From the IMG/VR virus record IMGVR_UViG_3300012979_000030, positions 1 through 64,000 of that record: a DNA stretch of 64,000 nucleotides; one strand, given 5' to 3'. This DNA is from a virus. Taxonomy: Duplodnaviria > Caudoviricetes. The stretch's first letter is position 1; each line of letters begins with the position of its first letter. Of the stretch, positions 2,073 through 25,015 are shown one piece after another. The position numbers and the translations under genes were made by a program. The notes below the pieces were generated by a model. It was given only the letters and a program-made list of their open reading frames with translations, did not search any database and was not told where the DNA came from.

Positions 2073-2963
2073 TTATTTCTCAGTTTCAATGATACATTTT
2101 AATTCAGAATATTCATTATAATTATTTGGAATACCAAATCTTGTGAAATCATGACCATCAACATTAAAATGAACACATGGAATTGTTGTATCAATATTTC
2201 CAACAACTGTTATAAAATTATCATTTATAGTATGAATATTTTTTATATTCTTTAATTTAGAAATATATTGATTTTTACTAATATTAAAATCAGTATTCAT
2301 AAACCATTCAAATGCACATGAATTTATAAATTGTTCCCTTTGTAATGACATTCTATCATGTAATTCTTTTGAATATATAGCAAACCCAAGTCTTAACCCA
2401 CACCCAACCAATTTATCAAATGATCCAATGATAATATTTTTAGGATTTTGTTTCAATGTTTGTATGGATGATTTCATTTGTTCAATATTCTGATATGTTA
2501 TATCACAAATATTATAATTAAAATTACTGTTATATAAATCCATTGTGTTAAAATTATATTTAAAATAATTTGTAAACCCACAATTTGTATATAAACAATC
2601 ACACTTTATATCAGATAATTTTGGTGTAATAAATTCAGAGTTTATATTGTCATATTTAAATTCTTTTTTTAATGGTTTAATATCCAATGCCTCACAATAA
2701 ACATCCATCATACCCCAAGTAGGAATACACCAACACATTGTTTTTGGTTTAATTGCTAATAAAACATTTTTAATAGCATTTTCACAACCATTTGATAAGA
2801 AGAATGTATTGCTCTCTATGTTAAAATAATTACCAAATTTCTCATATATATAATACATATCTGGATATTGTCTTACATTACAAGATACAACACAATCATT
2901 ACCTGGTTCATTTTGTGTTGACAATCCACATATTTTCTTTACATATTCATTTCTCTTTAACAT
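2073..2963 (-). CDS. PLP-dependent aminotransferase class I/II-like protein (short)
   Basis: SNGCENAI, PTWGMM and GSFDKLVGCGLRLGFA resemble the HisC-type SFSK..G..GLRLG PLP-lysine motif. Confidence 0.65.
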   Translation of the reverse strand: MLKRNEYVKKICGLSTQNEPGNDCVVSCNVRQYPDMYYIYEKFGNYFNIESNTFFLSNGCENAIKNVLLAIKPKTMCWCIPTWGMMDVYCEALDIKPLKKEFKYDNINSEFITPKLSDIKCDCLYTNCGFTNYFKYNFNTMDLYNSNFNYNICDITYQNIEQMKSSIQTLKQNPKNIIIGSFDKLVGCGLRLGFAIYSKELHDRMSLQREQFINSCAFEWFMNTDFNISKNQYISKLKNIKNIHTINDNFITVVGNIDTTIPCVHFNVDGHDFTRFGIPNNYNEYSELKCIIETEK

Positions 2964-3762
2964 TATTAATCCAAAAATCTACAAATTTTTTACCATATAA
3001 TCTACCATCAATGTCACAATCCTTACAACAATTAAATGATTGTCTTTTATTTTCTGATAACATTTTTTCTCTAACAATATCACATTTATTGACAAAATAA
3101 TTTTCTATATGTGTATTCCAAATACTATTTTCTGTTTCAGATTTACACTCCCAATCTGCTTCACATTGTATGTATTTCCCATCAACATCAATTGCAATTT
3201 TATAAAATGGTAAATAACACTCTCTATATATTCTTTCTATTGGTTTATTTAAATAACCACCCCTATTATATAAATTCATTTGTGGATTATTTACATCATG
3301 ATTTCTATACCAAGCATTTGTATTTTGGAATTTGCTTTTAAACCATTGTATATTAGACCAATCATGAACAGATACTTTTATTTGTGCAATTTTTGTTATT
3401 TTTTCCCAAACATCTTTATCCAATAATTTTCCATTAGTAACAACCTGTGGATTAAAAGATTTTAATATATCAACAATTTCATAAAAATTTGGATTGGTTG
3501 ATGGTTCCCCCCATCCAGCAATACAGACAAACCCTTTATAATCAATTTCATTCAATTGTTTACATATCTCTTTAACTGTATGTAATCCCATAAACACTTC
3601 TTTATTTGTTTTCCAACCATGTGATTGAGGACAGAAACTACATTTTAAATTACAAACATTAGAAATATTTAATTCAATTATTCTTAAACAATCTAATTGA
3701 GTTTTTATTTCTATATCTTCAACCAATGATTTCCAAGTATTAAATTGTTGTTGATTTTCCAT
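2947..3762 (-). CDS. Radical SAM protein with SPASM/twitch domain
   Basis: CNLKCSFC, GWGEP, VTNG, C-terminal CYLPF...QCEADW...CKDC. Confidence 0.9.
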   Translation of the reverse strand: MENQQQFNTWKSLVEDIEIKTQLDCLRIIELNISNVCNLKCSFCPQSHGWKTNKEVFMGLHTVKEICKQLNEIDYKGFVCIAGWGEPSTNPNFYEIVDILKSFNPQVVTNGKLLDKDVWEKITKIAQIKVSVHDWSNIQWFKSKFQNTNAWYRNHDVNNPQMNLYNRGGYLNKPIERIYRECYLPFYKIAIDVDGKYIQCEADWECKSETENSIWNTHIENYFVNKCDIVREKMLSENKRQSFNCCKDCDIDGRLYGKKFVDFWINNVKEK

Positions 3763-3763
3763 A

Positions 3764-23210: not shown

Positions 23211-24000
23211 TGCCTAATACCTCATATAATTTCTTTGGAAAACTACAATGTTTTTGTAACATACATGGTTTGCATTTTGAAACCAATTCACATGTTAAAC
23301 ATTTATCAACAATCTTTCTTCCTATGTATTGTGGGCAACCAAATCTTAATTCACCTGTTGGTTCTAATGTCCATATATCTGAACAATCATTATTCCAATT
23401 TAAAACTCGTTCTTCAATAACATTTTTTAATTTAAATTTCCATAAATTGTGTATTTTACATAACCACTCATCACATCTTTGGTGAAATAAATTATCAAGG
23501 TTATTATCTAATAAATGCTCAAACACTATACCATCAACAGATTCCAAATAATCAATATCAGATAATATTTTTAATAATCTTTCATCACTCATTGTTATCA
23601 AATCATTTGTCATTGTTATTAACACATCTATTGGTGTATTTGTATTTTTAAATTTAGATAAATTATTCAACCATAGTTTGTATTGTTCTGTTGTAAATCT
23701 CTTTGGATTCCATGATGTTGCTAATGATATATTATATTCTTGTATTAAGTTAAATATGTCATTATCTAATAATAATAAATTTGTGGATATGCTGTTAATT
23801 TTATTTGTTTCTATACATTTTTTAAGGACATCTTTATTTAAAAATGGTTCTCCACCAAATAAGACAATGCTATCTGCATGTATATCAATTAGTGTTTTGA
23901 TAAATTTTTCTTCATCAAATTGTATCTTCCTCTTATGTATATCACAATGAGGACAATTTAAATTACAATTATATGTTGGTATTGCATATACGGTTTTCAT
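23203..24000 (-). CDS. Radical SAM protein (short, SPASM-like C-terminus)
   Basis: PTYNCNLNCPHC, FGGEP, STNL, TSWN..RF, CLTC...CKPC...CSFP. Confidence 0.9.
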   Translation of the reverse strand: MKTVYAIPTYNCNLNCPHCDIHKRKIQFDEEKFIKTLIDIHADSIVLFGGEPFLNKDVLKKCIETNKINSISTNLLLLDNDIFNLIQEYNISLATSWNPKRFTTEQYKLWLNNLSKFKNTNTPIDVLITMTNDLITMSDERLLKILSDIDYLESVDGIVFEHLLDNNLDNLFHQRCDEWLCKIHNLWKFKLKNVIEERVLNWNNDCSDIWTLEPTGELRFGCPQYIGRKIVDKCLTCELVSKCKPCMLQKHCSFPKKLYEVLGNG

Positions 24001-24386
24001 AGTAAAAACTCTTTTTTAAAATATTCAACTGTTTTATCTATTGATTTATATTGCCATATATCCCCAATTTTTTCAATAATTTTATCATATACATCATTAT
24101 TATCAGAATATTTAACAAAATATTTGTCATCAAATAATAAATCCTCATAATCTAATGACTCATAGAATGGTATGCTAAAATATTTTTCCAAACATTTAGC
24201 ATAAACAATTGCTACAAAATATGATTTAGCAGGATATACTAATTCAGATTCTGTCTCAAAAAATTTAATAACATTGTTTATTATATTATCATAATCAATT
24301 GTATATGGTAATGAAACATCATCCCAAACATTTATCATATATGATAATTTTCTTCTTTGGTTCAATGTTTCATTATCTTTTATCAT
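23997..24386 (-). CDS. Small hypothetical protein heading the rSAM genes
   Basis: 129 aa, YPAKSYFVAIVYA motif; ATGA overlaps with both neighbours. Confidence 0.6.
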   Translation of the reverse strand: MIKDNETLNQRRKLSYMINVWDDVSLPYTIDYDNIINNVIKFFETESELVYPAKSYFVAIVYAKCLEKYFSIPFYESLDYEDLLFDDKYFVKYSDNNDVYDKIIEKIGDIWQYKSIDKTVEYFKKEFLL

Positions 24387-25015
24387 AGTGTTATAATCCT
24401 TGTATCACTATTATGCAAATGTTTATTAAATGGTTTTAGTGGCATATAAACTTTACCATCTTTGTTATTGTTTAAAAAATACTCAATGTTTTTTGGTGAA
24501 TCATCAATAATAACATCATACATATTTGTATCTTTTGGATTGTCATTCATTTCCAATTCAAATAATATCTTATCAAAAATTGAAAAATCAACTATTTTTT
24601 CTTCTTGACATTTTTTAATAAAATTTGATTTAGATATAATCATATTCATTGAAGCATTCTTTGTATGCAATACTTTATAATAATCTTTGAAATCAGTTCT
24701 TAATAATTCAAATATTTTATTACAATCATTTGCTAGATAAGAATTATCATAAAATGTTGTATCAAAGAAGATTTTATCCATAAATTTGTCAACAATAGAT
24801 GAAATATATTGATATTCCATAAGTGTGTCTTTTTTCTTATAAAATTCATAGATACTATCTGTATAATTATATTGTGTGATATTTTCCAATCTCAATCTTA
24901 AGGTTGTATCTAAATAATCATCATGGTTTAATGTAACCCATTGATTCCATCTATCACAAAACATTTCACTAAGTGATACAATTGTATCATCAAAATCCAC
25001 CATAATAGTCTTCAC
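24383..25015 (-). CDS. HAD-superfamily 5'(3')-deoxyribonucleotidase-like phosphatase
   Basis: IMVDFDDTI (DxD motif I), VIIDDSPKN (motif IV); GTG start after GAGGAG. Confidence 0.75.
   Translation of the reverse strand: MKTIMVDFDDTIVSLSEMFCDRWNQWVTLNHDDYLDTTLRLRLENITQYNYTDSIYEFYKKKDTLMEYQYISSIVDKFMDKIFFDTTFYDNSYLANDCNKIFELLRTDFKDYYKVLHTKNASMNMIISKSNFIKKCQEEKIVDFSIFDKILFELEMNDNPKDTNMYDVIIDDSPKNIEYFLNNNKDGKVYMPLKPFNKHLHNSDTRIITL

Follow-up and report, generated by a model that had tools for sequence, protein, structure and literature searches.

Peptide natural products and a few cellular proteins are known to be matured by radical S-adenosylmethionine (rSAM) enzymes that carry SPASM-type auxiliary clusters. 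Here we describe a phage locus in which 15 co-oriented and mostly overlapping rSAM genes (2947-24000, minus strand) are interleaved with two proteins of about 200 residues that end in conserved Cys-His or Ser/Cys tails. The locus lies in the window, the first 64 kb (about 25% GC) of the 106.5-kb linear IMG/VR virus record IMGVR_UViG_3300012979_000030. Because CheckV rates this record only 41% complete, the source is probably a jumbo phage; it is probably a very large gut phage that was sequenced as a fragment. The block holds two modules, each centred on one tailed scaffold protein, and we propose, with a probability of roughly 0.6, that it encodes a pathway in which rSAM enzymes mature whole proteins by modifying both kinds of tail.

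Among the described enzymes of this kind, the anaerobic sulfatase maturase anSME/AtsB is an rSAM/SPASM enzyme of minimal build that lacks a recognition domain and targets a Cys or Ser of a whole protein, and QhpD (QhpD/QhpC) cross-links a small protein subunit several times. By sequence, anSME appears to be the closest architecture for two enzymes of the block, called C-type below, which align to it end to end and hold the full SPASM cysteine set (genes being named here by their first coordinate as in Table 1; residues 11-306 match positions 9-330 of 363 in model TIGR03942, below threshold). Membership of that family was rejected, as the scores were 53.4 bits (7905) and 49.1 bits (13562) against a cut-off of 349. 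Moreover, the phage block differs in having no sulfatase, another substrate motif and many enzymes rather than one.

The closest published analogue of the whole locus appears to be the bacterial antiphage system HXS, in which the rSAM enzymes HxsB and HxsC, together with HxsD, mature HxsA (Li et al., Nat Commun 2026, PMC13128918). HxsA is a protein of 214 residues with five basic His-x-Ser repeats, one of which carries a mapped +8 Da change, and it binds DNA and blocks phage DNA entry (PMC13128918). The likeness consists in several rSAM enzymes and a small helper for a protein of about 200 residues instead of a short peptide, in a resemblance of the phage repeat, Cys-His-x-Ser/Asn followed by R-x-R-R, to a tandem His-x-Ser-type repeat rich in basic residues, and in weak matches of some cassette rSAMs to HxsB or HxsC. 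HXS is on the contrary bacterial and defensive, its effector is exported and carries a peptidoglycan-binding domain, its repeats are without Cys, and it has two rSAMs only, whereas the phage cassette has at least four conserved rSAM types and a C-terminal tail. Membership of HXS was rejected, since no homologues of HxsA or HxsD were found and the scores were far below cut-off (HxsB 51.4 bits against 370, for 7905; HxsC at most 26 bits against 268). None of the proteins 17209, 16481, 15442, 23997, 11346, 10780, 11914 and 3764 matched an Hxs model at E<=5.

The thioether systems among the peptides that are ribosomally made and then post-translationally modified (RiPPs), that is sactipeptides, ranthipeptides such as PapB/freyrasin, SCIFF/CteB and TIGR04115, share with the locus regularly spaced Cys beside SPASM enzymes. 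The tail Cys spacing of the Cys-His family fits a CXXX repeat, and cassette rSAMs weakly match PapB, TIGR04115 and QhpD-type models. The phage candidate substrate is instead a folded protein, 180-400 residues long, whose tail takes up 16-35 residues, the family scores are far below the cut-offs, and the block is without a detected leader peptidase, transporter or recognition element. The CXXX-repeat target maturase family TIGR04115 was rejected, as 7905 matched its N-terminal part only with 36.4 bits against a cut-off of 350. A classical RiPP cluster was also rejected: stop/start overlaps or gaps of 1-2 nt are usual in the block and the largest gap is 33 nt, therefore leaving no space for an unnoticed short precursor gene; hidden Markov model (HMM) scans of the block proteins found no peptidase or PqqD-like domain, and the candidates have 202 and 239 residues. 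The overlapping genes had been noted, and a target other than short RiPP precursors proposed, by the initial annotation, which was made from the sequence alone.

Annotated rSAM gene groups akin to that of the window exist in cultured jumbo phages, namely the Ralstonia phages RSL2/RSF1, the Burkholderia phages FLC6 and SURPRISE13, the Pseudomonas phage pPa_SNUABM_DT01 and the Agrobacterium phage Atu_ph07. These groups contain 4-6 rSAMs with cupin and 2-oxoglutarate-Fe(II) (2OG-Fe(II)) oxygenase genes and no module 2, whereas the window contains 15 rSAMs, no recognised oxygenase, D-type rSAMs with an aminotransferase-like gene, and a poly-Ser module. Papers on RSL2-like phages list the rSAM, cupin and oxygenase genes only (PMC11898562, PMC5468394), the rSAM group in the RP12/RP31 supplements is another one and comes without virion data that could be used for a tailed protein, and we found no paper in the literature that describes the cassette.

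The Cys-His tail and its association with rSAM arrays

The scaffold of module 1 (17209-17928) belongs to a large family, with 21 close homologues and 134 clusters at 50% identity in a profile search that covered 1.8 billion representatives. The family C-terminus consists of two to five Cys-His-x-Ser/Asn units followed by R-x-R-R. Results showed at least two CXXX repeats in 123 of the 134 clusters, three being the commonest number, and the R-x-R-R terminus in 120; within the units, 93% have His at position 2 and 84% have Ser or Asn at position 4, and C-x-x-x-R is a frequent form of the last repeat. A tail variant with Ser/Asn (and Cys/Trp) is found in the gut clade, and the units of the window protein are CHLN, CHGN and CYGT. 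In a 58-member alignment the sole invariant columns are Cys224, Arg236, Arg238 and Arg239.

An AlphaFold2 (AF2) model of the protein (pLDDT 78.9, pTM 0.75) shows residues 13-224 as a folded alpha/beta domain and residues 227-239 as disordered, and for this reason the last 16 residues are predicted to be its true core. In each scaffold family the tail is the most conserved portion, in line with the earlier proposal of the embedded proteins as substrates, for which they are the best candidates. Both of the Cys-patterned proteins described at that stage exist, but in 17209-17928 family-wide conservation and predicted disorder are confined to the last 16 residues, and its Cys203 and Cys211 lie in a predicted helix and are unconserved across the family.

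Across very distant phages, the tailed gene strictly co-occurs with the enzymes: it lies inside an rSAM array in 12 of 12 contexts examined, counting the window (the others being the related loci L001, L002, L004, L009, L010, L014, L015 and L016 and the phages RSL2, pPa_SNUABM_DT01 and Atu_ph07). The initial annotation had named a missing co-occurrence of tailed proteins and rSAMs in related genomes as evidence that would count against it; the two were found together in every related locus examined. The metagenomic loci L001, L002/L003, L004-L006, L009 and L010 keep the order of a 129-aa protein, an rSAM array and the tailed protein, then the 16481-type and 15442-type proteins and further rSAMs, and the distant family members in L014, L015 and L016 are also within rSAM arrays.

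Individual enzymes can be followed over the same range. Orthologues of the 23203-type rSAM are in L001, L002, L004 and L009, and those of the 17956-type in all gut-type loci, in RSL2 (E 8e-34) and in pPa_SNUABM_DT01 (E 5e-25). The A-type rSAM has one to three copies in related loci, and its homologues in RSL2-like phages, pPa_SNUABM_DT01, Atu_ph07 and Phosso (23-28% identity) are single-copy. By sequence identity, the 12640-type appears to be the most conserved enzyme of the cassette, with 36-39% identity (E ~1e-73) to RSL2 ORF075 and pPa_SNUABM_DT01 PA10_00060. Altogether, four rSAM types (C, A, 12640 and 17956) and the 129-aa protein are common to the gut-type phages and to RSL2 and pPa_SNUABM_DT01, which are proteobacterial phages.

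When 50,697 GenBank phage records were searched by tblastn, the A-type rSAM and the 129-aa protein matched exactly the same 15 records. The cassette carriers in culture are Ralstonia, Burkholderia, Pseudomonas, Agrobacterium and Sinorhizobium phages. Nothing was obtained in this search for the tailed proteins of the window, the 16481 protein, the 9836-type rSAM or P0273, one further member of the tailed family used as a query. The tailed homologues RSL2 ORF068 and pPa_SNUABM_DT01 PA10_00065, which end in CH..CH..CH..RGRR, were detected only by direct BLASTP of the annotated cassette genes of these phages. In both, a cupin or cupin-like gene and a C-type rSAM immediately precede the tailed gene, and beyond it are A-, 12640- and 17956-type rSAMs, 2OG-Fe(II) oxygenases and a homologue of the 129-aa protein. 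Atu_ph07 and L014 have an rSAM gene directly upstream of the tailed gene, the position of the C-type in RSL2 and pPa_SNUABM_DT01. The arrangement of Atu_ph07 looks similar, with an rSAM array, A-type and 129-aa homologues and a 296-aa protein that is the best match of the Cys-His model in the BFVD fold database.

In the phages of aerobic hosts RSL2 (L007) and pPa_SNUABM_DT01 (L008), and in L014, the cassette carries cupin or cupin-like and 2OG-Fe(II) oxygenase genes (in RSL2 assigned by eye from conserved C-terminal motifs, the record labelling them hypothetical), and the gut-type loci have no recognised oxygenase and more rSAMs. Oxygen-dependent and oxygen-independent enzymes may therefore perform equivalent steps. 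Two of the loci that carry the phage cassette are filed under bacteria, L009 (JAZNQD010000009.1, 249 kb) as a Bacilli metagenome-assembled genome (MAG) and L010 as a Succinivibrionaceae MAG. The 249-kb contig of L009 resembles the genome of a jumbo phage that was placed in a bacterial bin, and its host may thus differ from the taxonomic label.

A second module with a poly-Ser/Cys tail

The scaffold of module 2 (11346-11954) has 41 homologues. In 38 of them the C-terminus is a Ser/Cys run, 10-28 residues long and usually including 2-4 Cys, and then F[IL]AY[IM]x[ILV]. In the window type the run is followed by F-I-A-Y-M-x-I, which looks like a docking strand. The adjacent gene 10780-11346 encodes a tail-less paralogue, which aligns with 11346-11954 along its length and stops at ...EYTASLKDPYTE; it has orthologues in L001, L009 and L012.

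Profile comparison indicates that the scaffolds of the two modules are related. With hhalign, a C-terminal helix, a strand, "YTC" and the start of the tail are common to both families (probability 92%, E 6e-7), a link that appeared only with the deeper alignment A4, the comparison with the shallow alignment A1 being negative. In the AF2 model of the poly-Ser protein (pLDDT 75) the order of the elements is as in the Cys-His scaffold and the tail is disordered, and its best BFVD match (E 0.036) is a protein that also matches the Cys-His model.

Module 2 is divergently transcribed from module 1 in L001 and L009 and is therefore a separate operon there, which confirms the two-module layout first suggested. 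L012 keeps one-to-one orthologues of all four B-type rSAMs with 37-55% identity (9836-type 51%, 8917-type 37%, 6279-type 55%, 5305-type 50%), as well as the 11914-type and 3764-type proteins. In L011, a 327-kb relative, module 2 comprises one 9836-type rSAM (45% identity), one 11914-type protein and four tandem poly-Ser genes, a set which defines the minimal module 2, and it adjoins a gp25-like baseplate gene. With the poly-Ser protein and the 9836-type rSAM as queries, module 2 had no relative among the GenBank phage records. About 3 kb beyond the four poly-Ser genes, L011 also carries an array of five DNA methyltransferase genes (13886-17832; N6_N4_Mtase, MethyltransfD12); the initial annotation had described an array of this kind at 51977-62046 of the window.

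Upon comparison with L001 and L004, module 2 of the window is found inserted between the parts of another sub-module. The D-type rSAMs (14538, 2947) and the aminotransferase-like gene 2073-2963 are contiguous in these two loci, where the aminotransferase-like orthologues (59% identity) stand between two D-type rSAM genes: the 2947-type orthologues (50-52% identity) adjoin the aminotransferase-like gene, and the 14538-type adjoins both.

The 15 rSAM enzymes

The motif CxxxCxxC was found within the first 45 residues of exactly 15 minus-strand open reading frames, the number given in the initial annotation, and 14 of these match Pfam Radical_SAM at E<=0.01. The exception, 21059-22159, matches Fer4_12 and is 36-40% identical to its three A-type paralogues. 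The Pfam gathering score is reached by 8 rSAMs in hmmscan and by 9 in a six-frame search, the rest being paralogues of members. BLASTP sorted the enzymes into four groups (A: 18821, 19921, 21059, 22146; B: 5305, 6279, 8917, 9836; C: 7905, 13562; D: 2947, 14538) and three singletons (12640, 17956, 23203), close to the estimate of about five subfamilies, and the four A-type genes are mutually 35-59% identical.

The Cys-rich, SPASM-like C-termini that the initial annotation ascribed to most of the enzymes are present in part of the set. The strict motif CX2CX5CX3C occurs in six (7905, 13562 and the four A-type genes), a near-SPASM motif in 12640 and 23203 and a partial one in 17956; 14538 matches Pfam SPASM (PF13186), and 7905 scores 29.4 bits with the SPASM model TIGR04085, above its cut-off of 27. 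The B-type rSAMs are without the motif, and their C-termini read CGH...CxxC instead. In 40 homologues of the C-type 13562, Cys13, Cys17, Cys20 and eight C-terminal Cys are invariant; more than 120 clusters at 90% identity make up this family, and contigs of 200-480 kb carry many of them. The nearest Atlas clusters of the 12640-type are almost all viral and, from the cluster searches of the 12640-type and C-type, the cassette enzymes are almost exclusively viral.

Outside the window, at 90243-90539 (plus strand) of the 106.5-kb record and about 65 kb away from the cluster, there is one more match to Radical_SAM, the sixteenth (31.8 bits), in an open frame of 167 aa that may encode an activating enzyme, for instance NrdG or QueE.

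Accessory genes and surroundings of the block

The features of the block are collected in Table 1. The 129-aa protein that opens module 1 is 62-72% identical to its counterparts in L001, L002, L004 and L009 and 41-44% identical (BLASTP) to proteins of RSL2 and pPa_SNUABM_DT01; a single-sequence search, an Atlas search and an NCBIfam scan at E<=5 gave no family or fold for it. Orthologues of 16481-17236 are directly downstream of the tailed gene in L001, L002, L004, L009 and L010, with weak profile matches to pPa_SNUABM_DT01 PA10_00064 (9e-8) and RSL2 ORF070 (9e-5), and those of 15442-16479 hold the same position as in the window in these five loci. No family was found for 16481-17236, 15442-16479 or 11914-12606 in Pfam, in profile searches of PDB sequences or in NCBIfam at E<=5.

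Protein 3764-4777 shows a faint likeness to class-V aminotransferases/cysteine desulfurases (TIGR01977, at E 0.017 only) and no match among PDB sequences. This match and the conserved motifs ..IDDVQG.. and ..GTAHS.. suggest a degenerate pyridoxal phosphate (PLP)-fold enzyme, possibly without the catalytic lysine. The PLP gene initially recognised in the block corresponds to 2073-2963, whose aminotransferase match is above cut-off but weak; its HisC-like match (E 2.8e-7) is far below the cut-off of that model. The HAD gene (24383-25015) has an N-terminal DxDxT motif and a sub-threshold NT5C match, and among L001, L002 and L004, compared gene by gene, it has an orthologue (74% identical) in L004 only. 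The Lar-like (restriction alleviation) protein 7225-7905 sits in the middle of module 2. Neither this protein nor 4788-5315 has an orthologue in L001, L002, L004, L011 or L012.

All genes from 2073 to 30801 are on the minus strand. The tail-fibre genes described on both flanks of the block are supported by PHROG matches only, weak to moderate in strength. On the upper side, 26006-26404 (minus strand) encodes a 132-aa protein with a Head_fiber_dimeric/PEGA-like domain (26.8 bits, just under the cut-off) that resembles residues 41-96 of its 1462-aa fibre-like neighbour 26413-30801 (minus strand; 32% identity, E 2e-4). Megablast of the whole block gave no close phage record, and promoter and terminator scans gave no signal above that of shuffled sequence.

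Table 1. Genes of the rSAM block in the window, with the evidence for each assignment.
Position	Strand	Feature	Evidence
2073-2963	-	Short Cys-rich aminotransferase-like protein, 296 aa	Pfam Aminotran_1_2 21.9 bits, cut-off 19.7
2947-3762	-	rSAM, D-type	Pfam Radical_SAM 47.8 bits; paralogue of 14538-15437
3764-4777	-	Module-2 accessory, 337 aa	Two L012 orthologues, 37% and 35% identity
4788-5315	-	175-aa protein, not core	No Pfam, NCBIfam or PHROG match
5305-6282	-	rSAM, B-type	CxxxCxxC; CGH...CxxC C-terminus
6279-7223	-	rSAM, B-type	CxxxCxxC; CGH...CxxC C-terminus
7225-7905	-	Protein with N-terminal Lar-like zinc ribbon, 226 aa	Lar family matches all sub-threshold or weak
7905-8927	-	rSAM/SPASM, C-type (second copy)	37% identical to 13562-14548; strict SPASM motif
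8917-9846	-	rSAM, B-type	CxxxCxxC; weak Pfam matches
9836-10765	-	rSAM, B-type	CxxxCxxC; weak Pfam matches; phrog_1802 at 1.5e-13
10780-11346	-	Tail-less paralogue of poly-Ser protein, 188 aa	BLASTP E 4e-6 to 11346-11954
11346-11954	-	Poly-Ser/Cys-tailed scaffold, 202 aa, candidate module-2 substrate	Ends YTC-S11-C-S5-MFIAYMEI
11914-12606	-	Module-2 accessory, 230 aa	Orthologues adjoin poly-Ser gene in L001, L009, L011, L012
12640-13578	-	rSAM, 12640-type (singleton)	Near-SPASM motif
13562-14548	-	rSAM/SPASM, C-type, anSME-like architecture	Strict SPASM motif
14538-15437	-	rSAM/SPASM, D-type	Pfam Radical_SAM 72.6 bits, SPASM 39.6 bits
15442-16479	-	Conserved accessory, 345 aa	Orthologues 23-38% identity
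16481-17236	-	Conserved accessory, 251 aa, always after Cys-His-tailed gene	Orthologues 38-44% identity
17209-17928	-	Cys-His-tailed scaffold, 239 aa, candidate module-1 substrate	Ends TCHLNCHGNCYGTRSRR
17956-18840	-	rSAM, 17956-type (singleton)	Pfam Radical_SAM 43.1 bits; partial SPASM motif
18821-19936	-	rSAM/SPASM, A-type	Strict CX2CX5CX3C
19921-21066	-	rSAM/SPASM, A-type	Strict CX2CX5CX3C; phrog_1802 at 2.4e-21
21059-22159	-	rSAM/SPASM, A-type	Strict CX2CX5CX3C; Fer4_12 match, no Radical_SAM match at E<=0.01
22146-23210	-	rSAM/SPASM, A-type	Strict CX2CX5CX3C
23203-24000	-	rSAM, 23203-type (singleton)	CxxxCxxC at residue 12; Pfam Radical_SAM 37.2 bits; CX2CX5CX2C at residue 234
23997-24386	-	129-aa conserved accessory, opens module 1	phrog_20737 at 1.7e-20
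24383-25015	-	HAD-like protein, 210 aa, accessory not core	DxDxT N-terminus; NT5C sub-threshold, E 0.003

Proposed maturation of the tails and alternative explanations

We propose that the block encodes a RiPP-like system for protein maturation that is specific to viruses and built from two related modules. Each centres on a folded scaffold of about 200 residues with a disordered, strictly conserved C-terminal tail, consisting of three Cys-His-x-Ser/Asn units and R-x-R-R in module 1 and of a Ser/Cys run and F-I-A-Y-M-x-I in module 2. Dedicated rSAMs, most of them with SPASM-type auxiliary clusters, would abstract hydrogen from residues of these tails, their putative substrates, and the resulting cross-links or oxidations could be Cys thioethers or His/Ser changes as in HxsA; formylglycine is a further chemistry that we considered. 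The small conserved accessory proteins would probably help to present the substrate.

The tail as the site of action is supported by its being the most conserved part of a large family and by the position of the tailed gene within the rSAM array in all contexts examined. The action on whole proteins is supported by the alignment of the C-type enzymes, with their full SPASM set, to anSME, and by the precedent of HxsA as a repeat-bearing rSAM substrate of about 200 residues (PMC13128918). A complex prediction of a C-type rSAM with the full-length Cys-His-tailed protein (score 0.01, mark 0.32) weighs neither way.

Several observations speak against tail maturation. All of the rSAMs score below the curated cut-offs of the NCBIfam maturase families, the nearest partial resemblances being to anSME, HxsB, DynA, PapB and the tungsten-cofactor maturase, and HMM scans recognised no RiPP recognition element, leader peptidase or transporter in the block. 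No solved structure matches either scaffold fold beyond the noise: searched with Foldseek, the PDB yielded nothing at E<=0.001, and VIA-align of the two models gave best Z values of 6.2 (root-mean-square deviation (rmsd) 4.2, 124 aligned) and 4.5 (rmsd 6.1, 130 aligned), in the noise range. In GenBank the position of the tailed protein is labelled 'hypothetical protein' in RSL2, RSF1, Atu_ph07 and Phosso. In addition, the Cys-His repeats could simply bind metal.

The products of tail maturation would be located in the particle, in the vicinity of tail fibres or baseplate, judging from neighbouring genes and weak fold hints. Fibre-like, baseplate or structural genes neighbour the cassette in the window, L011, RSL2, pPa_SNUABM_DT01, Atu_ph07 and Phosso, and baseplate chains (phage Milano baseplate, TssK, phage Mu) are among the noise-level fold matches (Z 3.6-5.0), which are at most a hint. 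A further-reaching version, which we put forward only tentatively and consider rather doubtful, is that large phages operate a multi-step rSAM pathway by which the tails of one family of scaffold proteins, as parts of the baseplate or fibres, become heavily cross-linked or similar to cofactors. With no fewer than four conserved enzyme types and as many as 15 genes, it would be a new kind of enzymatic virion maturation with unprecedented chemistry; where the host is aerobic, cupin and 2OG oxygenases would take over part of the steps.

The metal-binding possibility can be extended to an explanation in which the tails are unmodified metal-binding or docking motifs and the rSAMs act on another protein, a sugar, a lipid or a cofactor. 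Fibre proteins of T4 offer a comparison with their His-coordinated metal sites, and the Cys-His tail has six potential Cys/His ligands within 10 residues. The docking-strand appearance of the terminal F-I-A-Y-M-x-I fits as well, and D-type rSAMs paired with the aminotransferase-like gene are reminiscent of small-molecule pathways, for instance that of BtrN and its aminotransferase. We nevertheless regard this explanation as unlikely, as it does not account for the same four rSAM types accompanying the tail across great evolutionary distances, nor for a minimal module 2 made of one rSAM and poly-Ser proteins, and the HMM scans found no glycosyltransferase, nucleotide-sugar or lipid gene in the block.

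Alternatively, the tailed proteins could be matured and serve as non-structural effectors of infection, in DNA binding, in superinfection exclusion like HxsA, or in counter-defence. The parallel is with an rSAM-matured protein whose basic repeats bind DNA and block phage DNA entry (PMC13128918), and the phage tail also combines a Cys-His-x-Ser/Asn repeat with a basic R-x-R-R end. An effector role seems improbable to us, considering that homology to HxsA or HxsD is missing, that a Pfam scan found no peptidoglycan-binding domain in 17209-17928 and its N-terminus shows no obvious signal peptide by eye, and that the cassette has fibre-like, baseplate or structural neighbours in the six contexts named above. 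Finally, we give very little credit to synthesis of a hypermodified nucleotide or modification of phage DNA, raised initially from HAD, dUTPase-fold and PLP genes: rSAM and PLP enzymes do participate in thymidine hypermodification of some phages (PMC8989533), and HAD-like and weak aminotransferase-like genes are present, but the HAD-like gene is in 1 of 3 close loci and the 4788 gene in 0 of 5 loci compared, no HMM supports a dUTPase fold, kinase and glycosylase-fold genes are missing from the block, the enzymes are most similar to maturases of peptides and proteins, the conserved tails are given no role, and thymidylate-synthase-like, TGT/DpdA and QueC genes were not found in the 106.5-kb record, which is weak evidence as the record is 41% complete.

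Significance of the cassette

In conclusion, rSAM maturation of a repeat-bearing defence protein was first shown only in 2026 with HXS, and the same logic would appear here in a virus-specific and widespread cassette. As cultured phages carry the core cassette, maturation of the tails by rSAM enzymes is directly testable. Should the tails be modified, phage proteins, perhaps those of the host-recognition apparatus, would be the site of a novel class of post-translational chemistry, and the cassette would be a rich source of new rSAM reactions.

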